A DNA stretch of 64,000 nucleotides from an uncultured Planctomycetia bacterium (lineage in GTDB: Bacteria; Omnitrophota; Gorgyraeia; 2-02-FULL-51-18): the NCBI GenBank assembly GCA_964606485.1, contig CAZSGP010000003.1, positions 270,479 to 334,478 of the forward strand. Reading direction: 5' to 3'. Positions 14,459-41,855 of this stretch are shown here, piece by piece. Below the pieces are notes generated by a model. The model saw only the letters and a program-made list of their open reading frames with translations. It made no database searches and had not been told where the DNA came from. Made by a program: the position numbers and the translations under genes. Positions within the stretch are counted from its first letter, which is position 1. Each line of letters starts with the position of its first letter.

Positions 14459-14688
14459 TCGTCTTTGTGTGCCCAGTTGCGGGCCTTGTTGTAGGCCTTA
14501 CCGACTTTGTCTTCAAGCTTGGGCGATAAAAGTCGGAGCAATTCTTTTCCGAGAATCCGGTATTGTTTTCCCACCTTGGCCGAACGGATCAAGCCCTTCT
14601 TAATCATCCGGGTCACCGTGCTCGAGCTAAGCTTTAGAAGCTGCTGGGTCTCTTCGTGCGTATAGACTTCATTTTCTTTGATTTCCAT
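14455..14688 (-). CDS. Small helix-turn-helix DNA-binding protein (excisionase/MerR-type HTH_17)
   Basis: 77-aa protein with YTHEETQQLLKLSSSTVTRMIKKGLIRSAKVGKQYRI, typical of excisionase-family HTH domains. It is the first gene of the minus-strand operon, 4-nt overlapped (ATGA) with the next gene. Confidence 0.6.
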   Translation of the reverse strand: MEIKENEVYTHEETQQLLKLSSSTVTRMIKKGLIRSAKVGKQYRILGKELLRLLSPKLEDKVGKAYNKARNWAHKDE

Positions 14689-14717: not shown

Positions 14718-14813
14718 ATCATATCATTACCAGTCATTGGCAGTCAAACATAGATGTGGGAGAGCTTAAAAATATCATTGCAGGCCCTATCAATAAAATA
14801 TAGAATTTCTCCC

Positions 14814-16286: not shown

Positions 16287-16293
16287 AAATCCT

Positions 16294-17298
16294 ATGAAAA
16301 AATGGCTCTTAAGATACGCTGGTTTTACTGCTGGATTTGTTACACTCTACATCGCATTCATGTGGCTGGCAGCGCTTCCGGTTCTCGATAAGTACCCTCA
16401 CCTGCGATATCTGTTTCTGGATCGTAAAATTGTGAAGCTCGTAACAAATGCCGGCAATCTTGAAGCTGACAATAACGATGGTGCTAATTTATTAAGATTT
16501 CAAGAGCTTCGAAAAACCGGCCAAGTTGATATTTTGGCCCTTGGCTCATCGCATTGTTACATGTCGTTTGATCCGCGCGTATTCTCGCAATACGGACTAT
16601 CCAGTTTTGCGTTGGGTAGCGGCAGCCAAACACCCCTAAACTCCTACTATCTGCTCAAGACCTATTTTCCGCAACTAAAACCCAAATTAGTCATCTTAGA
16701 CGTCTATTCACTCGTCAACGAAAGCGATGATGGACTGGAAAGTTTTTGCGAAATCTTGGTTAGTAGTCCGATCCACGTAAATTTAATTCGAATGGCTATG
16801 GCAACTTCCTCGATGCACGCCTTCAACGCACTAACCTTTGAATGGATGCGGCGAATTTGGCTACCTCTCGAGAATCGGGTTCAATCCCCAACTTTTTCGG
16901 GTGAGTATGTATCCGGCGGTTATGTGGTCGACAATACCACCTTTGACGGTACCGGTTCGTTTAAAAACCGGAATTTGCGTTTGTCAAAAAAGCAGTTGGG
17001 CTACTTAGAAAAGATCATCCGCGCCGTTCAAAAAGAAAACTCAAAGATTGTGCTAGTGACAGTTCCGTACTCGTATGAGTATCGCCAAAGTTTTTTGAAT
17101 GATGAGGAGCTCGCGGGCACCTATCGATTGCTGGCCACAAAACACCACATCTCTTACTATGACTTTAATGCGTTAATGGACACTCGAAACAACGCTTATT
17201 TTTCCGATAAAAGCCATTTGAATGGTTATGGCGCTGAAACCTTTTGCCATCTTTTGATGAAGGTAATAAAATCAGATCCGCTCTATCAGTCGCTCTAA
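16294..17298 (+). CDS. DltD/AlgX/AlgJ-like SGNH-type partner protein of the MBOAT acyltransferase
   Basis: N-terminal membrane anchor MKKWLLRYAGFTAGFVTLYIAFMWL followed by LALGSSHC (a SGNH-like Ser-His region). It starts 8 nt after the MBOAT stop; the ORF begins at 16234. Confidence 0.55.
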   Translation: MKKWLLRYAGFTAGFVTLYIAFMWLAALPVLDKYPHLRYLFLDRKIVKLVTNAGNLEADNNDGANLLRFQELRKTGQVDILALGSSHCYMSFDPRVFSQYGLSSFALGSGSQTPLNSYYLLKTYFPQLKPKLVILDVYSLVNESDDGLESFCEILVSSPIHVNLIRMAMATSSMHAFNALTFEWMRRIWLPLENRVQSPTFSGEYVSGGYVVDNTTFDGTGSFKNRNLRLSKKQLGYLEKIIRAVQKENSKIVLVTVPYSYEYRQSFLNDEELAGTYRLLATKHHISYYDFNALMDTRNNAYFSDKSHLNGYGAETFCHLLMKVIKSDPLYQSL

Positions 17299-19160
17299 TT
17301 TTTACGCCTATAAATGCTGTATGAAAATTTCTTGGGCTTTTCGGTGAAAGAGTACATAAACACTCTCGTGTAATTTTTCTCAAGCTCTTTTGCCAGGAAC
17401 GGCTCAACGCCGCTAGACTCCTCAACCCATACCAACGCAAAGCATTCCCGTTTAAGATACGCCTCGAAGCTGTCATCCGCTTTTTCAAGTGCCTGTCGCT
17501 CAGCCGGCATTACAATTATCGGCAGAGTTCCTTGGTCATAAAAATAACGCCTCTCTCCGGACACCAGCACCCTCTCTCCGGGCTTTAAGTTTTGCTTTAA
17601 ATACTCATAACCCTTAAACGATCGCTCATGCTCTCTCAAATAATCTTCGGTGCTCTGCAGACCGGTAATCACTCCCCAAGAATCGCGCGTGCGGTACAAA
17701 AATAATGCCGAATGAATGATAATCACCAACACAAACAGCACTCGGATCGCCACTCCAGCCAACCGCTTTTGGTCCCACAATGCGTTAAGAGCAACGCCGC
17801 ACCCTAAGGCCAAAAATGGCAAAAGCGCCAAGATGTACCGGATCTGTTGGGACTGGGTAAATAAAAAGAGAATCCCAAAAAATGTGAACGCCGCCATCCA
17901 GCGCGCCGGTGCTGTTGATTGCTTGATTTTAAAAATAAGCGGCGGTAAAAACATGAGGTACAGCGGCCCTAATATCTCACCGCCAAACGGTTTCGGATGC
18001 AGTGTCATGTTCCATAAAAGTTTCAAAAATGCAGCTGGACCGTAACCCAATCCGTCGCGAATATTCATTTCGTATCCGTTCCCCCCAAAAAACGAAGGAA
18101 AAAATGGGTACAACGGATTACCTAAAATCCACCAGCTTCGCAAATACCAAATACCAGCCGTTAAAAATGATCCAAGAAAAAAAAGCGCGCAAGCTTTCAG
18201 TTTGTTTTTTGACCGGATTCCCCAAAAAATGAATAGAATGCCAGCAAAACCGAGCGCCAGGTACTTCGTGGCGAGTGCCCCGCCCATAAAAACCCCCGAC
18301 CACCAGGCCGCGCGGCTCTCACTCTTGTGCTGCACCAGAAATAATTGAACTGAAAGAAACGTAAAAAATGCGAGAGCTAGATCGACATAGGCTTGGCTCG
18401 ACTGAGTAAAGATAGCGGGTGTAAAAATAAATACGGCGGCACCAAGCGCTGCTGAACGAGAACTTGTGTATCGTTTTCCAAAAATGTAAATTGCCGTCGC
18501 GGTTAAAACGTAAAATGCCCAGTGAAATAGCTTGGCCAATGCCGTTCCTTGCAATAAAAGTCCGAGTGTAAAAAGCATTTCGGTTTGCAACGGCCATAGA
18601 GAGGCAAAACTGTAAGGCAAATAGTCGATTCTGCCTTTTAAAATAAAGTCCCGCGGATAAGCCAAATGATACGCAAGCGCGTCACTTTCGATGGGAGGCG
18701 TCAAACACTGAGTCCAAGCTAGAAAAAAAACAGGCGCGATCATTATTGCTAGTCGCCATCCATTCTTCTCAAATCCTAACGGACTGGGTTTAGTTTTAAT
18801 GAGGAAGAATGATCCGAGAAAAAGAAAACAAAGTAACAGCGTAATTGAAACCGTGCTAACAAATCCCGCTATCCCCAAAAGAAGGACTCCCAGCGCAAGG
18901 ACAATAATTCCCGTCCCCATCGCAAAGAAGGCGGTTTCTTCCATAGCGACAGCTGCGGCTCCAAGCCCACCACTCAAATGAATGACTTTTTGGCCGGTTT
19001 GAAGAGCAATTCTTAATATAACCGCCAACCAAACGGATGCTAAAACGGCTTGCAGTAAACCCGTCCGGACAAACTCCATTAAAATGCGCCTTGAATCTTG
19101 GGTAGCAGCACCCAAAACCCGTAGAGAGTCAGCACCAAAATACTCCAAAAAAGGGCGCAA
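17295..19160 (-). CDS. GT-C-fold membrane glycosyltransferase (ArnT/PMT_2-like)
   Basis: 621-aa polytopic protein with about 12 hydrophobic segments and a large C-terminal soluble domain. An acidic-His motif (ESDALAYHLAY) follows the first TM region, as in ArnT/PMT enzymes. Confidence 0.6.
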   Translation of the reverse strand: MRPFLEYFGADSLRVLGAATQDSRRILMEFVRTGLLQAVLASVWLAVILRIALQTGQKVIHLSGGLGAAAVAMEETAFFAMGTGIIVLALGVLLLGIAGFVSTVSITLLLCFLFLGSFFLIKTKPSPLGFEKNGWRLAIMIAPVFFLAWTQCLTPPIESDALAYHLAYPRDFILKGRIDYLPYSFASLWPLQTEMLFTLGLLLQGTALAKLFHWAFYVLTATAIYIFGKRYTSSRSAALGAAVFIFTPAIFTQSSQAYVDLALAFFTFLSVQLFLVQHKSESRAAWWSGVFMGGALATKYLALGFAGILFIFWGIRSKNKLKACALFFLGSFLTAGIWYLRSWWILGNPLYPFFPSFFGGNGYEMNIRDGLGYGPAAFLKLLWNMTLHPKPFGGEILGPLYLMFLPPLIFKIKQSTAPARWMAAFTFFGILFLFTQSQQIRYILALLPFLALGCGVALNALWDQKRLAGVAIRVLFVLVIIIHSALFLYRTRDSWGVITGLQSTEDYLREHERSFKGYEYLKQNLKPGERVLVSGERRYFYDQGTLPIIVMPAERQALEKADDSFEAYLKRECFALVWVEESSGVEPFLAKELEKNYTRVFMYSFTEKPKKFSYSIYRRKN

Positions 19161-19212
19161 TACACGTAGGGAAAATCATTTTTCATAGCGGGTATGTTAT
19201 CACAATTCAAAT

Positions 19213-19240
19213 TGATTTTAGCCCTAAAAAGTCGTAGATT
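19213..19240 (+). promoter_or_regulatory. Candidate sigma70-type promoter (TTGATT-16-TAGATT) for the plus-strand glycan operon
   Basis: Hexamers at 19213..19218 and 19235..19240 lie 7 nt upstream of the ATG at 19248, with AAGG as a possible RBS. Confidence 0.3.
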
Positions 19241-19247
19241 AAGGCCC

Positions 19248-20237
19248 ATGAATTATAATTTTAAGGGTCGCCGCGCGCTCATTACCGGCGGCCTTGGATT
19301 CATCGGCAGTAATCTAGCGCTAAAACTGGTTGAGCTCGGCGCTCACGTCACTTTAGTTGACGCCATGATTCCCGAATATGGCGGCAACCCTTTCAACATC
19401 GAACCCGTCAAAGACAAAGTCACTATTAATTACGGTAATATTTGCGATGCGCACGCGATGAATTGGCTTGTGCGCGACCAAGACTATGTTTTCCATTTGG
19501 CAGGCCAAGTTTCCCACGTCAAAAGTCTTCATGATCCATTTACTGATATTGAATATAACATTAAGGGCACCGCTACGCTTGCCGAAGCCATGCGAACACA
19601 TAACCCCAAAGCAAAGCTCGTATTTACCGGTACGCGCGGCCAATACGGATCCGTGGCAAAGCTCCCCGCTGCAGAAGACACGCCGGTAAATCCCAAGGGA
19701 ATCTACGAAATTACAAATCTGGCCGCCGAACAAATTATTAAAGCCTATCATCGCTCGCACAATCTCCAGGCGGTATTACTTCGCTTGACAAATATCTACG
19801 GTCCCCGCGGCCAGATGAAGCATTCACAGTTTGGCGTTGTAAATTGGTTCGTTAGATTGGCCATTGATGGAAAGACCCTTCCGATTTTCGGAGACGGAAA
19901 AATTCTACGCGACTTTGTTTACGTGGATGACTGTGTGGATGCTATTTTGATGGCAGCCGCAAAACCAGAAGCTGTCGGAGAAATTTTTAATGTTGGTACC
20001 GATAAACCCTCGGATTTTCTAACACTCGCTAAAATCATAACCAGCCAAACCGGTAAGGGGCGTTGGGAATTTGCTCCATTTTCCGAAGAACGAAAAGCTC
20101 AAGAACCCGGTGATTTTTATTCTGACATCTCCAAAATCCGCTCCATTGTCGGCTGGGAGCCTAAGACGAACCTTGAGGACGGCATTCGTCAGACAATCAC
20201 CTATTACCAGCAACACCAATCCCGCTACTGGCCGTGA
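19248..20237 (+). CDS. NAD-dependent epimerase/dehydratase (extended SDR) with an atypical catalytic motif
   Basis: ALITGGLGFIGSNL Rossmann motif and extended-SDR length. The canonical YxxxK reads YEITN (Lys replaced by Asn). Start is taken at the ATG at 19248 (MNYNFKGRRALITGG), downstream of the candidate promoter. Confidence 0.65.
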   Translation: MNYNFKGRRALITGGLGFIGSNLALKLVELGAHVTLVDAMIPEYGGNPFNIEPVKDKVTINYGNICDAHAMNWLVRDQDYVFHLAGQVSHVKSLHDPFTDIEYNIKGTATLAEAMRTHNPKAKLVFTGTRGQYGSVAKLPAAEDTPVNPKGIYEITNLAAEQIIKAYHRSHNLQAVLLRLTNIYGPRGQMKHSQFGVVNWFVRLAIDGKTLPIFGDGKILRDFVYVDDCVDAILMAAAKPEAVGEIFNVGTDKPSDFLTLAKIITSQTGKGRWEFAPFSEERKAQEPGDFYSDISKIRSIVGWEPKTNLEDGIRQTITYYQQHQSRYWP

Positions 20238-21409
20238 TAGAGAAAGGTCGCATCCCAGCTCTGGACGGCGTCCGGGGGCTGGCCATTCTCTTAGTCTTAT
20301 TCCATCACTTTACAATTATCATCCCCCGAACTCGTGTCGAAACTTATTGGAAAGAAATTTCTGAGCTAGGCCGCTACGGCGTAGATCTGTTTTTTGTTCT
20401 ATCCGGCTTTCTAATCACGGGTATCTTGATTAATAGCCGGAACAAACCCGATTATTTTCGGAATTTTTATATCCGCCGCTCACTCCGCATCTTCCCTTTG
20501 TATTATTTATTGGTCATCGGCAGCCTAACGGTGCTTCCAAAGCTGTTAAACCTACTGCCCCCGCCACTTTCCGAGCAAATCGCCTCACAAACGGTCGCGG
20601 GCCACTGGCTTTGGTACGCCACTTATTGCTCCAACTTCTTAATTGCCCTTCAGAACAAGTATTCTCACGGCACCTTAGATATCAGCTGGTCGCTTTGTAT
20701 CGAAGAGCATTTTTATTTAATATGGCCATTTCTTATTTACACCTGCGGAAACAGCACAGTAAAAAAAATTTGTGTTTGGGCTATTTCAGGCGCTCTGGCG
20801 TTGCGTATTTTATTGTGGAGCTTGGGTTTTTCTCGCCTGCAAATCTACGTGCTAACCTTCACGCGTATAGACGCCATCTTATTCGGCGCGCTGCTTGCGG
20901 TGTTATTCGCGGAACCTTCTACCCGAGCCAAATGGGCATCGCTCAGCCGAAAAAAACTATTTCTTGGATTGGGATTTGTGCTGGCAGCGCTCGCTCTCTA
21001 CGGACAATTCCGCTATGATTCCTTTACAATGAACACCATTGGCTACACGGTAGTTGCAATATTCTTTCTACTCCTCATTGATTTATGTCTGCCCGGTCAA
21101 AACGGAAACAACTTTGAAAGATTTTTTGACCATCCTTTCTTTAAATTTTTCGGAAAATACTCCTATGCGCTGTATATTTTTCACCTGCCCTCAACCTACT
21201 TCACCAAACACGTTTTTTTTAGGGGCAACGACTTTCATTCGCTTCCGGGTTTTGCTATACTATGGCAGTTTATTTTTTACGTCATCGCAACACTTGTCAG
21301 CGTTCTCCTAGCTCTGGCAAGCTGGAATTTATTAGAAAAACCAATGCTTTCTCTAAAAGAGAAATTGACAAAAATGAAGCCGGTCAATGCCGTCCATCCA
21401 AAACTCTAG
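20234..21409 (+). CDS. Acyltransferase family 3 (OafA/YrhL-type) integral membrane O-acyltransferase
   Basis: [18 protein letters not shown]-terminal motif and about 10 TM segments. ATGA overlap with the upstream gene. Confidence 0.75.
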
Positions 21410-22505
21410 CGCCGTACGTTTTGGCGATTTATCCCGTGAGTACTCTGCCCTCAAAAGTGAAATTGATTCGGTTGTCGGAAATGTTCTTACCAGCGGCTCA
21501 TTTATCTTAGGACAAGAGCTGGTTCACTTTGAAAAAGCGTTTTCTGCATATCTAGGAATACCTCACTGCGTCGGAGTCGCCTCTGGCACCGAGGCAATTG
21601 CGATTGCTCTTTTAGCTTGCGGCGTTAAGCCGGGCGACGAAGTGATCACCGTTTCTTATACTGCCCCGCCAACCGCCATGGCCATTTCTATGATTGGAGC
21701 CGTCCCAAAATTCGTGGATATTGAGGAGCGCTCTTGCTTAATGGACATTTCAAAATTTGAACAAGCCGTAACCCCCAAAACAAAAGCTGTGGTTCCGGTC
21801 CACATGTACGGTCAATGCGTGGATATGGACCCCCTCTTAAAAATTGCGCGTGCGCATGGTTGCCGCGTTGTTGAAGATTGCGCGCATGCCCATGGAGCGA
21901 CTTACAACGGCAAAAAAGCCGGCACCTTGGGTGACGCAGCCGCTTTCAGCTTTTATCCCACGAAAAATCTCGGCGCCTATGGTGATGGCGGCGCGGTCAC
22001 GACGAATGACGCCGCCATCTATGAGAAGGTCCGTCTATTGCGCAATTATGGCTTGCAAAAGCGCGGACACTACACGCTAAAAGGTTGGAACAGCCGCCTC
22101 GATGAAATACAAGCCGCGATTTTAAGCGTTAAGCTTAAACACCTGGACCAATGGAATCTTCGCCGCCGTGCCATTGCCGCTCGGTATCAAAATGGGTTAT
22201 CGGGGCTTAATCTTAAGCTTCCCCAGGAAATACCGGGACGCTTTTCGGTGTATCATCTCTATGTCGCACACACTGCGCGACGCGATCAGGCAATCAACTA
22301 TCTGAAAGAACGCGGCGTCGAGGCCATGGACCACTACGCATTTGCTTCACACACACTGGAAGCGTTTAAAAATCTTTCTTCCCCTTCACTTCCGGTCACC
22401 GAACAAAAGGCCGCCCAATCTTTGTCACTGCCCATCTACCCTTATTTACAGGATTCCGAAGTCGACCGTGTCATCGAAGCTGTGAGGGATTTTTTCAAAT
22501 CATGA
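21387..22505 (+). CDS. DegT/DnrJ/EryC1-family PLP-dependent sugar aminotransferase (ArnB-like)
   Basis: Typical sugar aminotransferase sequence ([29 protein letters not shown]). Confidence 0.8.
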
Positions 22506-23437
22506 AAACGCTGTCCATCGTCGTTCCTGTTTACTGTAATTCCGGCAGCCTTCAGGCTCTCAAGGTAGAATTCGACAAAGTTGCAGCGGCGCTTTCAGAG
22601 TACGTCTGCGAATTCGTTTTCGTTGATGACGGCTCTCCTGACGATTCTTATTTGGTATTAAAGGAATTAGCCGCAGATCCCCGCGTGCGCGTGGTCAAGC
22701 TTTCGCGCAATTTCGGATCAAATGCGGCTATCCACGCAGGTCTTACACACGCCAAGGGCGACGCCGTGGCCATCATATCCGCTGATCTCCAAGATCCCCC
22801 AGAAATGATTCCCGATCTCGTCCGCTCCTGGGAAAAAGGTTTTTCTGTAGTATTAGCCGCGCGGAACAACCGAGAGGACGGCCTTCTCACGCGCTTTTTT
22901 TCCAATATTTTCAACCAGCTCTTCCGCAAATTCGTATTTCGAGATTTCCCGCGCGGGGGCTTTGATTTTCTGCTCATCGACAAAAAAGTGGTGACGATTC
23001 TTGTTGATTTGGCCGAGAAAAATTCTTATATTTTTGGACAAGTGCTCTGGGTTGGCTTTAAGCGCACAGTTCTTTACTACAATCGTCGTCAACGCCACAG
23101 CGGCCGCTCTCATTGGACATTCTTGAAAAAAATTAAGTACTTCATCGACGCTTTTACTGCATTCTCCTACTTGCCTATACGGCTTATGTCAGCACTCGGC
23201 TTCATCATGGCAACGCTTGGAATTCTTTATGCTGGCACCGTTGTGATTTTATCGAGGGTCTTTTATTACAAAATTCCCACAGGCTGGGCGTCGCTGGTAA
23301 TCATCATTCTGACCGTTTCAGGCACCCAGTTAATTCTAATGGGCGTGCTTGGCGAGTATCTCTGGCGTGTACTAGATGAATCGCGTCGGAGACCGCTCTA
23401 CGTCGTTGAATCCGTCGACGAAAAAATCCAACCATGA
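22502..23437 (+). CDS. GT2 polyprenyl-phosphate glycosyltransferase with C-terminal TM helices (ArnC/GtrB/CsbB-like)
   Basis: VVPVYCN...VDDGSPD...DLQDPPE GT-A motifs. Two C-terminal hydrophobic helices ([43 protein letters not shown]) are typical of ArnC/GtrB. Confidence 0.8.
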
Positions 23438-24093
23438 AGCGTGGCCAAAACGTTACCATTTATCCTAATGTATCAATTGGCAAAGACTGCATCCTCTTTG
23501 ACGGCGCCGTAATCGGTCGTCCGCCGATGGCCACAAAGACAATGAACCGTTTAATTCCAAAAAAAATTCCGGGCCTCAAAATCGGCTCCTCCTGCATCAT
23601 TGGAGCCAACAGTGTTCTGTATACGGGTAGCCGGCTTGGCGACGGCGTCTTAATAGGAGATCTCGCCTCAATCCGCGAAGGCTGTCAAATCGGAGAAGGG
23701 TCGGTGATTGGACGCGGTGCCATGTTGCTTTATGACTGCATGATTGGAAACTACGTTCGCATTCAAGATCAAGTGCATATTGCCGGAAAAACCATAATTG
23801 AGGATCATACTTTTATTGGTATGGGGGTAGTGACGTCCAACGATAACGATGTCTATTTGTCCCGTTTCGGCTTGGCGCCATTACGCCATCAAAAACTGGT
23901 AATTCGTAAATATGCTTTTATCGGCGTCAACGCCACACTCTTGCCGGGGATCGAAATTGGGAGAGGCGCCATCGTTGCGGCCGGTGCCGTAGTCACAAAA
24001 GATGTTCCAGCTTGGACAATGGTGGCCGGCGTCCCGGCGCGCCATTTTAAAAATATACCCAATGATTGGCGCCGCAAAGTAGAAAAAAAATAA
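23434..24093 (+). CDS. Left-handed beta-helix (hexapeptide repeat) acyl/acetyltransferase
   Basis: Repeated [LIV]G-x-x-x-x-I hexapeptides throughout the 219-aa protein. ATGA overlap with the upstream GT2 gene. Confidence 0.7.
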   Translation: MKRGQNVTIYPNVSIGKDCILFDGAVIGRPPMATKTMNRLIPKKIPGLKIGSSCIIGANSVLYTGSRLGDGVLIGDLASIREGCQIGEGSVIGRGAMLLYDCMIGNYVRIQDQVHIAGKTIIEDHTFIGMGVVTSNDNDVYLSRFGLAPLRHQKLVIRKYAFIGVNATLLPGIEIGRGAIVAAGAVVTKDVPAWTMVAGVPARHFKNIPNDWRRKVEKK

Positions 24094-24103
24094 AGCAAAA
24101 CCC

Positions 24104-30230: not shown

Positions 30231-31845
30231 TTTTCTCTTCCTTTTTATCACGGAAATCATAAATAAACATCGAGTACCCAATTACTGCGCTTGGCGGCGT
30301 GGATAGCGTCCATTCACACTGATCAATGCGATGCGCGCCAATCGCATAAACAGTTTTCTCAGGAACGCTTCTTTCGCTATCACGGATAGCTCTTGCTGGC
30401 AGCGACGGGTCTACAGGCCCAATTGTACTTAGCGCCAGGTCATGAACGTCGTTTTGACGCACGTATTCTCCCACGCGCTTCATTTCCTGCCCCCAATCGA
30501 GGTTCGAATCTCTTAAATATCGATAACCATTTTTCGGCCCGCCCACAAATTCATTAAAATAGGCCAGATGATTTGGAAAAATAAAAAGCGCCTCACAGAC
30601 ATGCCATCCCATCAAGCCAATCACAAACACTTTCATTACTTTTGTTTTGTTATAAATAAAAGCCAAGGCACCGCCACACAAAACAAACAATATTGGATAG
30701 ATGGGTAAAAAATAACGTATCCCGGCTTGCGCCTTGTCATTCAGTGTAGCAAAAAATAAAAAAATTACTGGAACTGAAATCAAAGCGATGGTTAATCGGT
30801 CAGGCAAAACCTTTTTGATTAGAATAAAACTGAGTAGTATGGCCAAAATAAAAGGAATTGAATTTTTGATTAAAAAAGCCACAAAATAATAATACCACCA
30901 TCCGTTTCTTGACCATTCACCCATGAGGTATGCATCAACTCCTCTGGCTCTCGTAAACATCATACTGATAAAGGCCGAAGAAAATGTCGATAAAGGCACG
31001 GGTACCTTTTGCGCGAATTCAAGCAACTTCTCACCACCCACCTTTTGATACATCTCCATTTTTTTTGATGGGTCAGGCGTGTCTTTTAAAAGTGGTTTCA
31101 ATTCAAAAAAATAGCCGGCCCAAATGGTTAAAAAACAGCTGACCGCAAATATCCCCATCTTAGACAAGCGAAGCTCTTTGCGTTTACCACCTGCCAACGC
31201 CACTAATAGTAAAATAGGCAGGAGAATCACTGCGCTGAATTTCGATAAAAAGGTCATCCCCGCCGCAATTCCAGTCCACGCGGCATTTGTTTTGGAAGGT
31301 TTTATGAGATAGGAATAAAAACAGATGAGGGTCAAAAAGAAAAAGAAAGCGACTGAGAGGTCCGCCGTCGCAAGACCCGAATGAGCAATAATATTAGGAC
31401 AAAAGCAGTACAGCCCAAGACTAAAAAGAGCTGCTACTCCGCCAAAAAGACGTTTGCTAAAAAGAAAAATGGTCAAACCAAATAACGCAGATAAAAAAAC
31501 GATCGGAATTCGAGCCCAGAATATGAACCGGTCCACAGCGTGATTAGCATGGAAAAAAAACTGCTTTGCAAACTCAGGACTATCCCCAACTTTCCAGGAC
31601 TCATGGTCCAAAGGAGCTTTGGCCCCCAGTAAATAAAGCGGCGCAGAAGCCAAGAGCCTAGGAAACGGTGGCGAAGCTGGGTTCATCTTGAAGTTGCCGG
31701 TCATCCAATAAGAGTAACCACTGGCAACATGGTGATAGAACTCGTCTGCAGTAGCCGACTTCGTTCGCATTCCAAGAATCGTTTGTGCGGCCAGACAAAT
31801 AAGGAGCACCGCTGCGCCCACCCAAAGCTGAGCCTTAGCTCTCAC
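30223..31845 (-). CDS. GT-C-fold membrane glycosyltransferase (ArnT/PMT_2-like)
   Basis: Motif KSATADEFYHHVASGY after TM1, polytopic membrane region and a C-terminal soluble domain; 540 aa. Confidence 0.65.
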   Translation of the reverse strand: MRAKAQLWVGAAVLLICLAAQTILGMRTKSATADEFYHHVASGYSYWMTGNFKMNPASPPFPRLLASAPLYLLGAKAPLDHESWKVGDSPEFAKQFFFHANHAVDRFIFWARIPIVFLSALFGLTIFLFSKRLFGGVAALFSLGLYCFCPNIIAHSGLATADLSVAFFFFLTLICFYSYLIKPSKTNAAWTGIAAGMTFLSKFSAVILLPILLLVALAGGKRKELRLSKMGIFAVSCFLTIWAGYFFELKPLLKDTPDPSKKMEMYQKVGGEKLLEFAQKVPVPLSTFSSAFISMMFTRARGVDAYLMGEWSRNGWWYYYFVAFLIKNSIPFILAILLSFILIKKVLPDRLTIALISVPVIFLFFATLNDKAQAGIRYFLPIYPILFVLCGGALAFIYNKTKVMKVFVIGLMGWHVCEALFIFPNHLAYFNEFVGGPKNGYRYLRDSNLDWGQEMKRVGEYVRQNDVHDLALSTIGPVDPSLPARAIRDSERSVPEKTVYAIGAHRIDQCEWTLSTPPSAVIGYSMFIYDFRDKKEEKNV

Positions 31846-32917
31846 GGTCGAATCCTCTCACCCAATTGCGCATGGGCAATTCATAAAAGTGAAAAGAAAA
31901 ATACGCGATCAAAAGAACAGAGATCACGAAGCTCAGGAAAAATGAGCCTGTTGAAAAAATATTGCGGTTAAGAGCCTTATAATCAAAAAAAGTAAGGACC
32001 GCGATTTGAATTGGGATATGCCACAAGTAAATGCTGTAGGTTAAATCACCAAAACCTTTAAAGTAGGAGCCGATTCTCCCCTCATCTTTGGCGTCCATCA
32101 GCGCTGCCATCAACACGATTGGTGGCAGCATCAACACAAATTGAATAGTCGACTCAATAAGGCCAGGCTTTATATAAACAATAATCACGGAAGCGGCTAG
32201 GCTAAGAGCGCTAAGAATCATCAAAACAACTGTATAAACACGAAAAATACGCCACACATAAAATGAGAGACAGCCCAAATAAAAATAAAGACCGCACTGC
32301 CAAATCGAGGATTGAGGGATCAACGCCTTTACTCCAAGACCAAAAAATACAATAAAAAATAAAACAGCCGTTATTCCCCGCTTAATCACGATGGGCAGCG
32401 TCATAAAGAAAAAAAAGTAAATCAACACCTCGATTGACACCGACCAAATTGGCCCGTTAAAAGAGTACCCTTTTTCAAGGCCCCAGTTAGAGACAAAGAA
32501 AAGGTTTAGAATAAAATGATAGGCATCATTAATGCCATATATCTGATAGCCCCCCGTTAAACGAAGGCTGATCAATTGCAAAACCAAGACCGCAATTAGC
32601 GTCAAAAAATGAAGCGGATAAAGCCTTGCCAGCCGGTGCACAAAAAAACTCTTAGAAGAAGTTCTTTTTGATTTAATGTACACAGTTGAAAAAACAAAAC
32701 CCGAGATCACCCAAAAAAGAAACACCGCATGACGACCATAATTGTAAAAAATATTCAAAACCTCGTAAAAGGGCTGGCTTGAACGATTAGCCAGCGCATT
32801 GGCCGTTTTTATAAAATAAAAATGCTGGTAATGCCAAACAAGGACTGCCAGCGCCGCGACGCCACGTAGGCAGTCAATCCAATAAAAGTATTTTATTTTT
32901 TTTGTAGTCGCGTCCAA
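31835..32917 (-). CDS. Acyltransferase family 3 (OafA-type) integral membrane O-acyltransferase
   Basis: WIDCLRGVAALAVLVWHYQHF N-terminal motif and about 10 TM segments. Confidence 0.7.
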   Translation of the reverse strand: MDATTKKIKYFYWIDCLRGVAALAVLVWHYQHFYFIKTANALANRSSQPFYEVLNIFYNYGRHAVFLFWVISGFVFSTVYIKSKRTSSKSFFVHRLARLYPLHFLTLIAVLVLQLISLRLTGGYQIYGINDAYHFILNLFFVSNWGLEKGYSFNGPIWSVSIEVLIYFFFFMTLPIVIKRGITAVLFFIVFFGLGVKALIPQSSIWQCGLYFYLGCLSFYVWRIFRVYTVVLMILSALSLAASVIIVYIKPGLIESTIQFVLMLPPIVLMAALMDAKDEGRIGSYFKGFGDLTYSIYLWHIPIQIAVLTFFDYKALNRNIFSTGSFFLSFVISVLLIAYFSFHFYELPMRNWVRGFDRES

Positions 32918-34248
32918 GCTAAAAGACCCCCATAAGCAGACAGCGCCATTAAATAAAGGGCTGAAATACGCTTAAAGTAAAAGAAAAGTCCCGGTATGCT
33001 ATAAAAAAGCGCCCAGCCTAATGCTATCGGAAATTCGCTCAATACCAAAAAAGGCAATGCCCAGATCAGATGGTGCCCATAAAAAGTAATGGTATAACTC
33101 AAATTCATAGCGACGAACATCCAGCTCACCGTTCGAAAAAGCACTTTCACATCTGCTTTTTTTGTCGTCATCCAACAGAGCGCTAAGATGCAATTCACCA
33201 TAAAAAATCCGAAAAAAATCTTGGTGATGACCGACTCCGAAAGAGACAAACCTGCCTTGCCCAGCATGAACCTAACCGCATACGGCACCGAACTACTTGT
33301 AAACCAACCACCGGCATTGGAAAAATAAATTAATGTTTTGGGCCCCACCCAAAACGGCGCATACAGTAAAACTGAAATCCCAAAAAAAAGGACTAAGCTG
33401 ATGAGCGTTGCCTTAAAAACACCGAATGTCGATCGGATCTCATGTTTTTTTATGTAATGAATCAGTAGCGGTGGCAAAAGAATAATGGCTGTGAATTTGA
33501 TGAGCACCGCCATCGTTGCTGCAGCGATTGCCGGATAAAAGAAATCTCTTAAGTGGAGATAAATCGCCAACAAACACCAAAAAACCATGACAATGTCATT
33601 ATGGCCATCGATGAGAATATTGCTAACAAGAATGGGGTTTAGCGCAAAAAATGCTGTTAAATACTCCCCGTGGCGTAAATTGGCCTGATAGCAAACTCGA
33701 CCCAACAACCAAACCGATGCCGCATAAAACCCAAAGAGCATCATCTTGAACAAAAATATATTACAGAAATATGAGTTGCCTGCAATAGCCGGAGCAATCC
33801 ATTGCAAAAGACTCCAGCCTGGGCCGTAGTTTTCTGGTAGCTTGACAATGCGTACCCACGTGGAAAGTTCATAAAAAAGATCCCCTGAGTATACCCTTGG
33901 CGCCAAGTAGGGATTTTCGTGGTAAACTCCCAAAATTCGACCCCGCATGATGTACTCATGCAAATCCCCTGAAAATATCGGCGGCAGCGCACATAAAAAA
34001 ATACCCACCAACCCCATAAAACACCAATCTATTTTTTTTAAAATTGATCCTTGCGTTTTTTTTGGCCAAAAAAGAAATGCAAAGGCCACTATCAGGTTAA
34101 GAAAAATCAGATTAATCCAAAAACGGGGCAAAGCTTTTTGGGGTGGGAGGTTGATATCTCCGCCGATCCGGCAGATCGTGGGAAACGCGAGCATCACCAG
34201 AACGCTCGCAGCGTAATAAATTTTTCTAAGTCTTTCCGAGAGGAGCAT
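32893..34248 (-). CDS. Polytopic integral membrane protein, possible GT-C/DUF2029-like glycosyltransferase
   Basis: 451 aa and highly hydrophobic throughout. An acidic-His pattern (SGDLHEYIMRG) follows the early TM segments. I see no other recognisable motif. Confidence 0.35.
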   Translation of the reverse strand: MLLSERLRKIYYAASVLVMLAFPTICRIGGDINLPPQKALPRFWINLIFLNLIVAFAFLFWPKKTQGSILKKIDWCFMGLVGIFLCALPPIFSGDLHEYIMRGRILGVYHENPYLAPRVYSGDLFYELSTWVRIVKLPENYGPGWSLLQWIAPAIAGNSYFCNIFLFKMMLFGFYAASVWLLGRVCYQANLRHGEYLTAFFALNPILVSNILIDGHNDIVMVFWCLLAIYLHLRDFFYPAIAAATMAVLIKFTAIILLPPLLIHYIKKHEIRSTFGVFKATLISLVLFFGISVLLYAPFWVGPKTLIYFSNAGGWFTSSSVPYAVRFMLGKAGLSLSESVITKIFFGFFMVNCILALCWMTTKKADVKVLFRTVSWMFVAMNLSYTITFYGHHLIWALPFLVLSEFPIALGWALFYSIPGLFFYFKRISALYLMALSAYGGLLAWTRLQKK

Positions 34249-34249
34249 C

Positions 34250-35527
34250 CTATTTTTTGCGTTGAGGCGGAATCAGCGTCATTTTTGGAAGCGGCACAAT
34301 AAATCGTCCCCCGGAACTCAAATATTTCTTCTCCTGCTTAACAAATACCTCTAGAAAATGCCACGGCAACACAAGAAAATAATCAGGCTTAGCTTCGCGC
34401 GCTTCATCCTCACTGACGATTGGGATCATCGTTCCAACAGTTTTTTTTCCAAATTTATCGGGGTTACGTTCAGCGGCACCCGCAATCAAACGATGATCCA
34501 GATCAAAATACTGGAGCAACGTATTTCCCTTAGTAGAGGCACCGTACACATAAACAACTTTCCCTTTTTTTACTTCGGTGTTAATAAAATGATAAACGGC
34601 CTCACGAACCGAATCAACGCGCTGAGCAAACTGGAAGTACGCTTCCTTTTCAAGAAGCTTGAGCCTCTTTTCTTTCTTTTCCATATCGCGAACACGCTCG
34701 AGACCCTCTGGGCTTGATGCGCAATCCTCGTGCTTAATATAGACACGAAAACTTCCAGCATTCACGTCGTTAAGCTCAACATCGACAACCTTAAAAGCGT
34801 GGCGTTTGAGCAAATTTTGCAGCGAATACAGCGAGTAATACTCCAAATGTTCGTGGCAAATATTATCAAACGCATTGCGCTGCAGCATCAGCGGCAGATA
34901 ACTCATCTGGATTATCCAAAGCCCTTCTGGGTCAAGGCATTTTGAGATATCCGATACGAACTTATTTGGATCATCAAGGTCGTAGAACATCGCAATACTT
35001 GTAATCACCTTCGCTTTCTTTCTATTAAAATTTTTTTCGAAAGCTGCATGGTTAAAGTAATCGTTGATGATTTTCGTCGTGCCCACCTTCGCTTCTGGGA
35101 CTAGGTTTTTTGCAGGGTCAAAACCGACGAGCTGGATACCCTTTTTCGTGTATGATCTTAAAAGCGTCCCATCGTTACAACCAATATCAATAACAAGATC
35201 ACCCTTCTTGAGTGCGATGCGCTTTTCAGCTGAATGCGAAATATCCGCAAGGGCCTTTCGCATCATTGAGTTTGTCCCAGAGTGGTAGTAGTAAAAGCGG
35301 TACATTTTTTCAGGATTCACTGTGTGTCTTAATTGCAAAAGACCGCAACCGTTCTGCTCCGGATCACAAAGAACAAGCTCGAGGGGATAAGTTTTCTCGG
35401 TGGCTGACGCACGATCAGTAACAAAATCTGAAACGTAAATACTTCCCAGGGACAGAATAAACGCCAAATGCTCAGAACCACAAACACGGCAGCGCGAAAT
35501 AATTTTAAAATCAAAATCCTTTTCCAT
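34250..35527 (-). CDS. Sugar C-methyltransferase (TcaB9/TylC3-like, with N-terminal Zn-ribbon)
   Basis: N-terminal CRVCGS...CG zinc-ribbon, central SAM motif VIDIGCNDGTLL, and a C-terminal C-methyltransferase-type domain; 425 aa. Confidence 0.6.
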   Translation of the reverse strand: MEKDFDFKIISRCRVCGSEHLAFILSLGSIYVSDFVTDRASATEKTYPLELVLCDPEQNGCGLLQLRHTVNPEKMYRFYYYHSGTNSMMRKALADISHSAEKRIALKKGDLVIDIGCNDGTLLRSYTKKGIQLVGFDPAKNLVPEAKVGTTKIINDYFNHAAFEKNFNRKKAKVITSIAMFYDLDDPNKFVSDISKCLDPEGLWIIQMSYLPLMLQRNAFDNICHEHLEYYSLYSLQNLLKRHAFKVVDVELNDVNAGSFRVYIKHEDCASSPEGLERVRDMEKKEKRLKLLEKEAYFQFAQRVDSVREAVYHFINTEVKKGKVVYVYGASTKGNTLLQYFDLDHRLIAGAAERNPDKFGKKTVGTMIPIVSEDEAREAKPDYFLVLPWHFLEVFVKQEKKYLSSGGRFIVPLPKMTLIPPQRKK

Positions 35528-35529
35528 TC

Positions 35530-36312
35530 CTAGTCCCTTCTTTTATGATTCATGGCAGACCTAGCCTCTCCCATGGACGATTTGCTCAATAAATAGCGGT
35601 TTTTTTGAAAAATAGTTCGGCCCCAAATATAAACCAAAAGCCATACACTTTGACTAATGTCCTGAACCTTCATTTTGGAATGCCCATAGGTACGCTTGGG
35701 CAAGCTAATCGAAATCTCGTGCACTGAATATCCGTTAAAAGAGAGGATATACAGACTTTCAAAGAAAAATGAATAACTCTTTGAAACCACTAAACCAAAC
35801 ACATCCTTAGTAATACGGTCGAGACGGTACACCCGAAAAGCGCCTGATGCGTCGTGCGGAATCTTCAAAAGATGCCTTGTTAAAAAATGCCCTAAATGCG
35901 TTAGGGTTTTACGGTAGAGATTCCAATCAGACAAACTCTTTTTGTCAAGATACCGCGACCCAATCACCACATCATATTTCTTAGAACACTCGACAAACTG
36001 AGGAATATCATCGGGCTGATGCGTAAAATCGCAATCTAGAGTCACGAGCGTCTGAAAACCTCGTTCGTACGCCCAGCGAATCCCCTCGCTATGGGCGCTT
36101 CCGATCCCCATCTTACCCTTGCGATGAATCACGCTTACAAGCGGATCATTTTTAGCGATCGCATCAGCAACGTCGCCTGTGCCATCAGGAGAACCGTCGT
36201 CCATAAAGAGTATTTCGGTTGCCAAGCCGAGACTTTTTAATTTTTCATACATCGGGCCTATATTTTCACGCTCGTTGTATGTTGGGATAAAAATCAGCGT
36301 GTCGTTTTTCAT
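35530..36312 (-). CDS. GT2 polyprenyl-phosphate sugar synthase (DPM1-like)
   Basis: LIFIPTYNEREN...MDDGSPDGT...LDCDFTHQPDD GT-A motifs. Start is taken at the internal Met MKNDTLIFI (36312); the ORF extends to 36351. Confidence 0.75.
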   Translation of the reverse strand: MKNDTLIFIPTYNERENIGPMYEKLKSLGLATEILFMDDGSPDGTGDVADAIAKNDPLVSVIHRKGKMGIGSAHSEGIRWAYERGFQTLVTLDCDFTHQPDDIPQFVECSKKYDVVIGSRYLDKKSLSDWNLYRKTLTHLGHFLTRHLLKIPHDASGAFRVYRLDRITKDVFGLVVSKSYSFFFESLYILSFNGYSVHEISISLPKRTYGHSKMKVQDISQSVWLLVYIWGRTIFQKNRYLLSKSSMGEARSAMNHKRRD

Positions 36313-37058
36313 TTTTCTAAAACTCCAGCGCTCCGACCCCAACACAACCACAGCAGCGCAAAATACCCACCAATTGTTTTAAGCGGCTTGTTTTTACTGG
36401 CACCTGCCTTTTTTTCATAGTGAAGGACGAACGGAATTTCGGTGATTCTGCATTTCATGAGACGAAATTTAATGAGAATTTCCGGTGTCACCACAAAACC
36501 CATATGCGGCAGCTCGACAAATTTGTCACCAAAAATCCGAAACGCTTTTTGAAGTGTCTCGGCGCGCATTGCGCGGTAACCGCAGCTGTATTCCCAAACA
36601 CCTTTGATGGGAAAAAAAAGTTTCAAAAAAAGTCCCGCGCCACGGCTTAAAACACTTCGAACACCGGACAACCCCTCTTCCCCGCCGCCTTTTTGATAGC
36701 GCGACAAAATCACAACGTCGTAACCTTCGCTTAGCTTTTGCATCGCCTTCGGAATGTACACCGGGTCATGCGTGTCATCGCAGTCCAGAGTAACAATCGT
36801 ATCGCCGGGAGCGGACGTTTTAGCTGCGTGATGAAGCCCGTCAATCATCGTCTGCCCCAAACCTCGGTTAACCTCATGACGAAGAATCTCGAATGGAAAT
36901 TTCACGGACAATTCTTTTGCTTTTTCATACGTCCGGTCGCTACTACCGTCATCCAAAATTAAAATTCGGTAGCCAGAACCGAGAGCAGCATGAATTTTTT
37001 GAGCGATCGGCTCGAGAGCGAGCTCCTCGTTATAGGCAGGCAAAAAAACGGTGATCAT
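36309..37058 (-). CDS. GT2 polyprenyl-phosphate sugar synthase (DPM1-like)
   Basis: ITVFLPAYNEE...LDDGSSDRT...LDCDDTHDP GT-A motifs. ATGA overlap with the upstream gene. Confidence 0.75.
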   Translation of the reverse strand: MITVFLPAYNEELALEPIAQKIHAALGSGYRILILDDGSSDRTYEKAKELSVKFPFEILRHEVNRGLGQTMIDGLHHAAKTSAPGDTIVTLDCDDTHDPVYIPKAMQKLSEGYDVVILSRYQKGGGEEGLSGVRSVLSRGAGLFLKLFFPIKGVWEYSCGYRAMRAETLQKAFRIFGDKFVELPHMGFVVTPEILIKFRLMKCRITEIPFVLHYEKKAGASKNKPLKTIGGYFALLWLCWGRSAGVLEK

Positions 37059-38155
37059 TCGAAAAAGAGGCGCAGCGCCGCCACCACGTGTTTCTGGGCG
37101 CCGAGCGTTAAGCCGTTAAACATGGGAAGCGATATCATTCGTTCGCTAACACTCTCCGTTACAGGCAGATCCCCTTGCTGGTAACCCAGCTCCTTATAAC
37201 ACTCCTGCAAATGAAGCGGTACCGGATAGTAAATACCCGTCCCGATACCTTTGGCCGTGAGAAATTCGCGGAGCGCATCACGCTTTTCGACAAGCAGTGT
37301 GTACAAATGAAAGACATGCGTCTGATTTTTAGGCACAAACGGAACAGTTACAGACACATTCTTCAGTAGTGCGTTGTAGCGGGAGGCTATTTGATTGCGC
37401 TCCTTGTTCCATCGCTCGATGTATTGCAGCTTGATCAAAAGCACCGCAGCTTGCAAATCATCCAGCCGACAGTTAAATCCAACAATCTCGTGATAGTATT
37501 TTTTTCGTGAGCCATAGTCTCGATAAAGCTTGATCTGATCCGCAATCTTGTCGTCGGAAGTCAACACCATACCCCCATCTCCGCACCCACCTAAATTTTT
37601 TGTCGGGTAAAATGAAAGACAGCCCGCATCCGCAATCGAACCCGCATTTTTACCTTTATAAATTGCGCCGTAGCTCTGAGCGGCGTCTTCCACAACTTTC
37701 AGATTGTACTTTTTTGCAATTTTTTGAATCGGCTCCAAATCCGCACAGAGACCGTAAATGTGAACCGGTAGAATTGCTTTTGTTTTTTTAGTGATTGCCT
37801 TTTCAATTTGGGAAGGGTCAATGTTAAAAGTCTTAGGATCAATATCCACAAACACCGGCTTTGCACCAATGCGCGAAATCGATCCGCCCGTTGCAAAAAA
37901 AGTAAACGGTGTGGTGATTACTTCATCACCGGGACCCACTCCACAAGCTAAAAGCACGAGATACAACGCGTCAGAACCCGAAGAAACACCGATAGCGTGT
38001 TTCACGCCACATCTTTTAGCAATTTCTTTTTCAAGGCTCACCACATTGCTTCCCAGTATGAATTGGCGGGACTTCAAAACTTTCGAAAATGCTTTTTCAA
38101 TCTTCGAATCAACAAGGCGAAACTGAGGATTTAAATCAATAAACGGAACCTTCAT
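37055..38155 (-). CDS. DegT/DnrJ/EryC1/StrS-family PLP-dependent sugar aminotransferase
   Basis: [30 protein letters not shown] and a ~366-aa length typical of the family. Confidence 0.8.
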   Translation of the reverse strand: MKVPFIDLNPQFRLVDSKIEKAFSKVLKSRQFILGSNVVSLEKEIAKRCGVKHAIGVSSGSDALYLVLLACGVGPGDEVITTPFTFFATGGSISRIGAKPVFVDIDPKTFNIDPSQIEKAITKKTKAILPVHIYGLCADLEPIQKIAKKYNLKVVEDAAQSYGAIYKGKNAGSIADAGCLSFYPTKNLGGCGDGGMVLTSDDKIADQIKLYRDYGSRKKYYHEIVGFNCRLDDLQAAVLLIKLQYIERWNKERNQIASRYNALLKNVSVTVPFVPKNQTHVFHLYTLLVEKRDALREFLTAKGIGTGIYYPVPLHLQECYKELGYQQGDLPVTESVSERMISLPMFNGLTLGAQKHVVAALRLFFE

Positions 38156-38165
38156 GAATACTCTC

Positions 38166-41854: not shown

Positions 41855-41855
41855 A

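Follow-up and report, generated by a model that had tools for sequence, protein, structure and literature searches.

The locus at positions 17295-38155 of the 64-kb stretch of DNA analysed here (the window), which comes from a metagenome-assembled genome (MAG) of an uncultured member of the Omnitrophota, probably encodes a large, multi-component transmembrane glycosylation island that would tailor or build a surface glycan outside the cytoplasm. This reading is drawn from the gene families found, and we hold it with moderate confidence. The genes of the window were called from a listing of its open reading frames (ORFs) and from Pfam and NCBIfam scans. Every gene named in a first-pass annotation of the locus was recovered in its place: six membrane glycosyltransferases of the C-fold superfamily (GT-C), four glycosyltransferases of family 2 (GT2), two Acyl_transf_3 O-acyltransferases, two DegT aminotransferases, one hexapeptide transferase, one short-chain dehydrogenase/reductase (SDR) and one C-methyltransferase. 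For two of the GT2 genes internal starts (30230 and 36312) had been used, and the full ORFs extend to 30281 and 36351.

All six membrane proteins were found to be GT-C glycosyltransferases, including the one at 32893-34248, which had been entered as a doubtful sixth. GTC1 (17295-19160, minus strand, 621 aa) is of the PMT/PMT_2 (GT39/ArnT-like) type, with matches to PF02366 (27.5 bits) and PF13231, and its homologues are Omnitrophota proteins named GT39 or ArnT family. GTC2 (24104-25582, plus strand, 492 aa) is a PMT_2 protein (PF13231, 54 bits) which also matches GT87. The other four are encoded on the minus strand. GTC3 (25579-27858, 759 aa) belongs to the YfhO family (30.8 bits) and is the anchor of a conserved core, of which GTC5 or PMT2b (30223-31845, 540 aa; PF13231, 46 bits, plus Glyco_transf_22) is the third member; GTC4 or PMT2a (27833-29488, 551 aa; PF13231, 33 bits) is a PMT_2 protein like GTC5 and directly adjoins YfhO in most relatives. 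GTC6 (32893-34248, 451 aa, or 433 aa from the database start) is of the MptA_B/GT87 type by its homologues, which match PF26314 and PF09594 and some of which are named alpha-1,6-mannosyltransferase; GTC6 itself had no match in the local Pfam copy. The Pfam gathering score was exceeded by four proteins for PMT_2 or YfhO and by GTC1 for PMT. A hydropathy scan placed about 7-11 transmembrane (TM) segments in all six (about 7 or more in GTC1, about 9 in GTC2, and about 10 each in GTC4 and GTC5). The six proteins are mutually very divergent (best pairwise E 5e-6) and thus are not recent duplicates; the idea that such duplication had produced the high number of GT-Cs was rejected, since the paralogues barely align.

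Since sequence and profile searches of the GT-Cs against the PDB gave no usable match, a comparison of folds was needed. The model of GTC6 (AlphaFold2, alignment of 35 homologues) had a mean predicted local distance difference test score (pLDDT) of 93.5. Its best Foldseek matches in the PDB were PimE, which came first by E-value, GPI-mannosyltransferase I, ALG3 and ALG6, and the top 23 matches all belonged to the GT-C superfamily, with TM-scores up to 0.59 when normalised to the query and 0.65 when normalised to the target; the sequence identity to these solved enzymes is only 8-16%. The models of both GTC6 and GTC3 are multi-helix bundles, and the C-terminus of GTC3 is predicted to form a beta-rich extracytoplasmic domain followed by a final TM helix.

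GT-C enzymes carry a catalytic Asp or Glu just after TM1. An acidic residue in this position is invariant both in the YfhO protein (D48 in GTC3) and in GTC6 (D95), and in GTC6 D123 and H216 are also invariant, while N217 and D218 are conserved in at least 90% of the sequences. The same level of conservation (at least 90%) was found for D32-E33 in GTC4, D34-E35 in GTC5 and D160 in GTC1, where the residues near D160 are conserved too. We infer that the loop bearing the conserved acidic residues faces outward. The first-pass annotation had allowed that the membrane proteins could be transporters; the families, the conserved acidic residues and the fold all indicate GT-C enzymes. The predicted models support the GT-C fold for two of the six proteins (GTC6 and GTC3), and membership in GT-C families was established for all six.

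The four GT2 enzymes all match Glycos_transf_2 and have kept the DDGS and D-x-D motifs, and they are of the polyprenyl-phosphate sugar synthase type, as had been proposed, their best named matches being dolichyl-phosphate mannose synthase (DPMS), GtrB, ArnC and PgfS. The full-length enzyme of the ArnC/PgfS type (22502-23437, plus strand, 311 aa) scored 211 bits with PgfS and 167 bits with ArnC over the full length, and the hydropathy scan found two C-terminal TM helices in it, at residues 224-242 and 265-283. The GtrB-type enzyme (29475-30281, minus strand) has no TM helices; its best PDB match was GtrB sll0501 (5ekp, E 8e-59, chain residues 28-249), followed by ArnC, and it scored 162 bits with PgfS. 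These two enzymes share the ADLQDPPE motif. The two others, both on the minus strand, are of the DPMS type, with Pyrococcus DPMS (5mlz) as first match and ArnC as second: the enzyme at 35530-36351 (E 4e-22), which has no clear TM helix and also matches PpgS, AglJ and ArnC in NCBIfam, and the enzyme at 36309-37058 (E 6e-31). The latter is the conserved partner of the DegT gene beside the menaquinone (mqn) operon, and its orthologues scored 321-376 bits in five related loci (L001, L003, L005, L084 and L085; related loci are cited here by such numbers). Judged by family, the four GT2 enzymes would make polyprenyl-phosphate sugars. The logic by which a GT2 enzyme makes a lipid-linked monosaccharide in the cytoplasm and a GT-C enzyme transfers it outside the cytoplasm, to which the first-pass annotation appealed, holds here and is documented (PMC8035078, PMC11127046).

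In the mechanism that we propose, modified 6-deoxy-amino sugar nucleotides would be made in the cytoplasm by enzymes recognised by homology, from which the putative sugars follow: the 4,6-dehydratase-like SDR, three DegT aminotransferases (counting the wider region), the VioB/PglB-type N-acetyltransferase and the C-methyltransferase. The four GT2 enzymes (DPMS, GtrB and ArnC type), whose family is established, would then load the sugars onto polyprenyl phosphate. The lipid-linked monosaccharides would be flipped, presumably by an unlinked and shared flippase like CflA and GtcA of Firmicutes, and at the outer face of the cytoplasmic membrane the six GT-Cs would pass the sugars on to an acceptor. 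This acceptor would be a pre-existing envelope glycoconjugate made elsewhere, among which a lipid-anchored glycan or polysaccharide (LPS-like, that is lipopolysaccharide-like, capsule-like or a lipoglycan) is ranked first. Finally, the product would be O-acylated outside the cytoplasm by the two Acyl_transf_3 enzymes and by a pair of MBOAT and SGNH-like proteins.

Several of the enzymes called upon in this scheme are encoded by a plus-strand operon of six genes (19194-25582) for an SDR, an acyltransferase, a DegT protein, the ArnC-like GT2, an N-acetyltransferase and the PMT_2 protein GTC2. The first gene of this Arn-like operon encodes an NDP-hexose 4,6-dehydratase-like SDR (19194-20237; Epimerase/GDP_Man_Dehyd), whose best NCBIfam match was dTDP-glucose 4,6-dehydratase with 191 bits, under the equivalog cutoff. 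The others are a membrane O-acyltransferase (20234-21409; PF01757, 94.9 bits; about 8 TM segments), a DegT sugar aminotransferase that resembles PseC, ArnB and WecE (21387-22505; PF01041, 382 bits) and a hexapeptide N-acetyltransferase of the NeuD/PglB/VioB family (23434-24093; Hexapep, 110 bits; TIGR03570, 106 bits). As far as homology indicates, the operon would make polyprenyl-phosphate 4-acetamido-4,6-dideoxyhexose. The minus strand contributes an NDP-sugar C-methyltransferase (34250-35527; Methyltransf_13, _23 and _14), the second Acyl_transf_3 membrane O-acyltransferase (31835-32917; PF01757, 81.8 bits; about 7 TM segments) and the second DegT sugar aminotransferase (37055-38155; PF01041, 427 bits), which is the first backbone gene after the mqn operon and whose orthologues in relatives scored 452-469 bits.

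The island is larger than was first reported, since the MBOAT/SGNH pair lies outside 17295-38155 yet belongs to it. The MBOAT protein (14754-16286, plus strand; MBOAT, 102 bits) is DltB-like (152 bits), and the protein encoded next to it on the same strand (16234-17298) has weak matches to DUF1574 and Lipase_GDSL_2. By homology the two are a predicted extracytoplasmic O-acylation pair of the AlgI/AlgJ, PatA/PatB or DltB/DltD kind, and with the two Acyl_transf_3 enzymes they bring the extracytoplasmic O-acylation systems of the island to three. In relatives, an MBOAT gene adjoins SGNH/ALGX genes in L005 and inside the cluster in L009, and an ALGX gene is present in the cluster of L086. A lipid-anchored glycan or polysaccharide is favoured as the acceptor because MBOAT and AlgX-like SGNH genes recur in this way in the clusters of relatives, because GTC6 resembles enzymes that act on lipid-anchored glycans, and because of the beta-rich extracytoplasmic domain predicted in the YfhO protein, carbohydrate-binding modules being known in GT-Cs that act on polysaccharides (PMC11127046).

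The nearest homologues of the YfhO protein of the window, at up to 45% identity, are from Candidatus Omnitrophota MAGs, and its close subfamily comprises 218 cluster representatives at E <= 1e-30. An origin from Leptospira, which matches to DUF1574 and to the LIC_10190 family had at first suggested, was rejected, as the homologues and related loci indicate Omnitrophota. The synteny that the first-pass annotation wished to see checked was found: orthologues of all six GT-Cs are clustered in other Omnitrophota, and the arrangement is not singular but a block shared by about 20 Omnitrophota genomes with three to at least five GT-Cs per locus. In about 20 Omnitrophota-type loci the backbone consists of the menaquinone operon, DegT, the DPMS-like GT2, GTC5, GTC4, YfhO, a small HTH_17 gene and the nonulosonic-acid genes. 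Optional parts of it are a GtrB-like GT2 between GTC5 and GTC4 and a PMT-type GTC1 after YfhO, the latter position being occupied by GTC1 orthologues in L085, L014 and L086. L085 has exactly the full backbone order, from which L001, L003, L005 and L084 deviate little. In deeper relatives (L008-L012 and L017) the order is DegT, a GT87-type GT-C, GT2, PMT_2, YfhO and PMT_2, with a single GT2 gene immediately upstream of the three core GT-Cs and further GT2 genes farther upstream. L086, from an Omnitrophica RIFCSPHIGHO2 MAG, has at least five GT-Cs in 12 kb, and its GTC2 orthologues scored 550 and 360 bits.

Among the loci compared, the window holds the richest version of the shared block. It differs from the backbone by four insertions: the plus-strand six-gene operon (19194-25582), which lies between YfhO and GTC1; a block of lower GC content, 0.42-0.44 as against about 0.47, with a GT2, the C-methyltransferase, GTC6 and an Acyl_transf_3 gene; the GtrB-like GT2; and the MBOAT/SGNH pair. 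The GC content is low, 0.42-0.445, at 29000-37000 and 15000-18000, compared with about 0.47-0.49 elsewhere, and these stretches correspond to GTC5 through the GT2 gene at 35530-36351 and to the MBOAT/DUF1574 pair. This fits a more recent acquisition of the low-GC modules. The same cluster was also sought around YfhO homologues of other phyla, and this was rejected as the neighbours differ: the homologues of Latescibacterota, Gemmatimonadota, Chloroflexota and Patescibacteria had no detectable GT2, GT-C or DegT neighbours.

The absence of Wzx, Wzy, a priming transferase and GtrA, on which the first-pass annotation laid weight, holds across the 64-kb window. A Pfam scan of every ORF of at least 120 aa detected no Wzx, Wzy_C, Bac_transf, Glycos_transf_4 or GtrA protein in the window, and tblastn of the window with the Wzy_C, Wzx and small membrane protein of relatives gave only values of E > 0.7. 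Since the window is compact, with a sole unassigned gap of more than 200 bp (51474-51777), there is no room for a missed gene. The window also contained no WaaL ligase and no genes for a deformylase (ArnD) or SMR proteins (ArnE/F). The absence does not extend to all relatives, however, as some of them have a Wzy_C gene inside or a Wzx-like gene beside the cluster. Wzy_C proteins of 435-448 aa are encoded inside the GT-C cluster in L011 (2558-3901), L012 (6962-8275) and L017 (6971-8275), in the last two directly between GT2 and the PMT_2 gene preceding YfhO, and they have no counterpart in the window. L001 has a Polysacc_synt_3 (Wzx-like) flippase and a Glyphos_transf-type gene beside its nonulosonic-acid genes, and a Glyphos_transf-type gene is present in L085.

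A number of observations weigh against the proposed glycosylation island. The whole case rests on homology, from which we deduce the acceptor, the donors and the direction of flow, and the evidence on the fold covers GTC6 and GTC3 only. Just one of the four GT2 enzymes has TM helices; the other three end in a short hydrophobic stretch or nothing, and the window yielded no GacJ-like or DPM2/3-like membrane protein that could be their partner. There is a precedent for GT-A enzymes that lack TM helices and act together with a membrane protein, namely Firmicute GacI with GacJ (PMC8035078). No flippase candidate of the GtrA/SMR, Wzx or MATE type was found in the 64 kb. The first-pass annotation had counted four to six routes, and with four GT2 enzymes against six GT-Cs the picture of one pair for each route fails; at least some donors may be shared, in view of the single GT2 upstream of the three core GT-Cs in the deeper relatives. 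The core order, invariant over deep branches, looks more like a fixed pathway than like optional decorations. Since the PMT and YfhO families can also glycosylate proteins, a glycan acceptor is only a preference.

The first-pass annotation had further proposed the combinatorial decoration of one acceptor. Such decoration is one possibility, and the fixed PMT_2-YfhO-PMT_2 core suits a sequential pathway equally. A serious rival, though we think it rather unlikely, is that the GT-Cs act in turn as an extracytoplasmic assembly line, which would extend a membrane lipid or small primer into an oligo- or polysaccharide. Mycobacterial synthesis of PIM, LM, LAM and arabinan proceeds like this (PimE, MptA/B and Emb/Aft, with Ppm1), as does the extension of the dolichol-linked glycan in the lumen of the endoplasmic reticulum. 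In such a line few polyprenyl-phosphate donors would suffice, and Wzx, Wzy and a priming phosphoglycosyltransferase would be absent because they are not needed. The order PMT_2, YfhO, PMT_2, which is fixed over deep Omnitrophota branches, agrees with this, as do the excess of GT-C over GT2 enzymes (six to four), the single GT2 gene immediately before the core in the deeper relatives, the membership of GTC6 in the MptA_B family together with its structural matches, and the lack of a priming transferase in the 10 kb on each side in all annotated relatives. On the other hand, no cytoplasmic GT-B/GT4 enzyme that makes a primer (PimA/PimB-like) was found in the window or in relatives, the Wzy_C gene inside the cluster of three relatives implies an undecaprenyl-diphosphate-linked glycan somewhere, and the low-GC parts, absent from some relatives, look like recent add-ons that are typical of decoration modules. 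Gene order by itself is equally compatible with sequential and with parallel action.

Somewhat more doubtful still is a phylum-specific, GT-C-driven periplasmic assembly of a modified deoxy-amino-sugar glycan in a diderm bacterium, proceeding by none of the Wzx/Wzy, ABC or synthase pathways. In it the PMT_2-YfhO-PMT_2 core and the MptA_B- and PMT-type enzymes might use polyprenyl-phosphate monosaccharide donors, and the nonulosonic acid might serve as a cap. If true, an unrelated lineage of bacteria would have its own equivalent of the extension of glycans in the lumen of the endoplasmic reticulum (ER) and of mycobacterial lipoglycan synthesis.

Protein O-glycosylation, by which the PMT- and YfhO-type enzymes would place polyprenyl-phosphate-linked sugars on Ser/Thr of surface or secreted proteins, appears improbable. 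Actinobacterial Ppm1/Pmt, streptococcal Pgf and GtrB-dependent systems glycosylate Ser/Thr of proteins, and the very long surface proteins for which Omnitrophota are known would be plausible targets. GTC1 matches the PMT family PF02366, PgfS is the best match of the GT2 enzymes at 22502-23437 and 29475-30281, and the YfhO protein weakly matches PgfM1. However, the Pgf scores are far under the equivalog cutoffs (211 and 162 against 500 for PgfS, 21 against 1400 for PgfM1), and the locus has neither a MIR domain nor a gene for a Ser/Thr-rich target. Judging from the MBOAT/AlgX-like pair, the Acyl_transf_3 genes and the MptA_B-type enzyme, the acceptors would rather be glycans or glycolipids. Streptococcal enzymes of the YfhO and PMT_2 types do glycosylate proteins, according to two reports (PMC11092751, 10.1101/2022.10.10.511621), but the Pfam family PMT_2 is generic and includes ArnT, GacL and GtsC (PMC8035078).

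It is very unlikely that the locus is accessory to an ordinary O-antigen, capsule or LPS locus whose Wzx/Wzy or ABC, priming and ligase genes lie just outside the window or elsewhere on the 399-kb contig. This view would be served by the Wzy_C genes of L011, L012 and L017, by the flippase gene of L001, by the Glyphos_transf-type genes of L001 and L085 and by the minus-strand run that continues into an unassigned partial ORF at the left edge of the window. Against it, the 17 kb upstream and the 26 kb downstream contain none of those genes, the downstream side being occupied by housekeeping genes (menaquinone, SMC, fatty-acid synthesis), and the closest relatives (L003, L005, L084 and L085) are also without them up to 10 kb away on each side. 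Even if true, it would be compatible with the glycosylation island and would only name its acceptor; a conventional pathway elsewhere in the genome is likewise conceivable and would simply supply that acceptor.

The first-pass annotation had described the genes as two tightly overlapped operons. Tight packing is a trait of the whole genome, and the minus-strand run enters the menaquinone operon. Intergenic gaps are at most 33 bp throughout 14754-46404, and the minus-strand glycosylation genes run on from the menaquinone operon with gaps of at most 10 bp (25579-45199). Co-transcription of the quinone and glycan genes is possible. In L001, L003, L084 and L085, too, DegT and GT2 adjoin the mqn operon. 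Divergent starts are only 17-33 bp apart (19160/19194 and 45199/45217), and convergent genes overlap by 4 bp at 25579-25582 and 17295-17298. With such extreme packing, promoters and terminators must lie inside coding sequence. In scans of the window, promoter-like sites were at the shuffled expectation, and terminator-like sites were slightly above it with none at gene ends. Since these scans were uninformative, the operon structure rests on the gene overlaps. Neither Rfam nor tRNA scans found anything in the window.

A minus-strand gene for an HTH_17 protein of 77 aa (14455-14688; PF12728, E 4e-12) separates the GT-C block from the nonulosonic-acid operon. Strongly conserved orthologues with 138-144 bits are placed alike in L001, L003, L005, L085 and L086, and the protein may be a dedicated regulator of the island. 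The adjoining nonulosonic-acid cluster of the legionaminic/pseudaminic (Leg/Pse) type with acetamidino genes (542-14458, minus strand) was recognised from Pfam and NCBIfam and includes a NeuC-NeuB fusion, a CMP-transferase, a PglD-like acetyltransferase, DegT, a CBS-NTP transferase, HisH/HisF-like proteins and WbuX (354 bits). An ORF of 432 aa without a Pfam match (2255-3553) was considered as a hidden membrane component and rejected, being the soluble WbuX amidotransferase. The NeuC-NeuB fusion (8216-10444, minus strand, 742 aa) is represented by separate genes in relatives (cf. L003, L085). Below this cluster the gapless minus-strand run continues in a partial ORF (1 to about 540, minus strand), which is cut by the left edge of the window. 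Its visible 185 aa had no Pfam match and no match in any related locus compared; it could be the missing nonulosonic-acid transferase or another glycan gene.

Downstream of the island are the futalosine-type menaquinone operon (38166-45199) and then genes for a GGDEF protein, SMC and fatty-acid synthesis. The operon contains a further fusion, of MqnA with an MqnC-like radical SAM protein (38166-40151, minus strand, 661 aa), whose parts are again separate in relatives (cf. L003, L085). A protein of the AsmA/DUF748 type (56589-59150, plus strand, 853 aa) fits a diderm envelope; lpx or lpt genes were not found in the 64-kb window.

Additional genes were seen in or near the related clusters. A B12-binding radical SAM protein is encoded in or next to the GT-C block in L007 (7038-8477) and L011 (13994-15298), and ORFs of similar size follow the core in L008, L010 and L017. 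A gene for an APS-kinase/HD_4 protein lies among the GT2 genes of L003 and immediately precedes YfhO in L001, and L015 has a CysN/APS-kinase-like gene. From their families, the radical SAM and APS-kinase genes hint at methylated or sulfated variants of the glycan.

Omnitrophota are uncultured, ultra-small nanobacteria, possibly host-dependent or predatory. Full-text literature searches turned up no paper on this cluster. In the main paper on Omnitrophota genomics no word begins with "glycosyl" (PMC10066038), and a recent preprint on complete Omnitrophota genomes has only generic LPS and capsule glycosyltransferases, in variable regions. What is new here is that a single locus, in a candidate phylum of diderms, brings together four donor synthases and GT-Cs of six divergent families, and that a PMT_2-YfhO-PMT_2 core is conserved and constantly linked to the nonulosonic-acid genes and to a small gene of the HTH_17 family. 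The class of mechanism is established, and nothing in the locus demands new biochemistry. The island beside the nonulosonic-acid genes is a testable candidate for the main Omnitrophota surface glycoconjugate and a candidate genomic marker of the phylum, and its GT-C families and donor synthases offer a comparative case for the matching of donors with GT-Cs.

The claim that such an arrangement had not been described was overstated, as both GT-C-dense loci and systems of several GT2/GT-C pairs are known, with flippase genes that often lie apart from them. The mycobacterial arabinogalactan cluster is dense in GT-Cs. In Lactococcus lactis three Csd GT2/GT-C pairs share one unlinked flippase, and Bacillus subtilis has three GT2/GT-C pairs (PMC8035078). 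With GtrA/B/C, CsbB/GtcA/YfhO, CsdAB/CD/EF with CflA, and GacI/J/K/L, the island has in common a GT2 donor enzyme and a PMT_2- or YfhO-type GT-C acting outside. In systems of this kind one organism can have several pairs, the flippase can be unlinked and shared between pairs, and TM-less GT-A variants are known (PMC8035078, PMC11127046). The island differs from them in that six GT-Cs and four GT2 enzymes are found in 21 kb, while the known cases have one pair per locus or are dispersed. Moreover, the host here belongs to a diderm candidate phylum, no flippase is present in the 64 kb, the ratio of GT2 to GT-C is not 1:1, and the donors are apparently not Glc, Gal or GlcNAc but modified deoxy-amino sugars.

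The plus-strand operon (19194-25582) shares with the Arn pathway an SDR that forms a keto-sugar, a DegT enzyme, N-acylation of the amine, an ArnC-like GT2 and a PMT_2 GT-C. Its SDR, however, is 4,6-dehydratase-like and not the ArnA decarboxylase (ArnA gave a partial match of 30 bits), acetylation by the hexapeptide transferase would replace formylation, and ArnD and ArnE/F are absent. The equivalog level was not reached either, with 167 against 529 bits for ArnC and 15.7 against 567 bits (E 0.004) for ArnT. The Pgf system of Streptococcus mutans (PgfS, PgfM1, PgfE, PgfM2) likewise combines a GtrB-like GT2, YfhO-type GT-Cs and a sugar epimerase in one operon, but it modifies adhesin proteins in a monoderm, whereas the window has one YfhO protein and five GT-Cs of other types, with scores far below the equivalog cutoffs.

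Mycobacterial assembly (Ppm1, PpgS/Rv3779, PimE, MptA/B/C, EmbA-C, AftA-D) is comparable in its many GT-Cs served by few polyprenyl-phosphate donors, and the likeness extends to the MptA_B family of GTC6 and to PimE as its top Foldseek match; DPMS-like GT2 enzymes are present in the window. The phylum and the envelope are different, and a UbiA-type decaprenylphosphoryl-5-phosphoribose (DPPR) synthase, DprE1/E2 and PimA/B-like enzymes were not found in the window; mycobacteria use mannose and arabinofuranose, whereas the sugars of the island would be amino-deoxyhexoses. The extension of the dolichol-linked N-glycan in the ER lumen differs in being eukaryotic and in that its dolichyl-diphosphate-linked oligosaccharide is primed on the cytoplasmic face, and neither an oligosaccharyltransferase nor a primer pathway was identified in the locus. 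It is similar in that two GT2-type synthases (DPM1 and ALG5) feed six GT-Cs (ALG3/9/12/6/8/10) on the non-cytoplasmic face; the best structural matches of GTC6 include two of these, ALG3 and ALG6. The locus may show whether Actinobacteria and eukaryotes are the only groups that have extracytoplasmic assembly lines.

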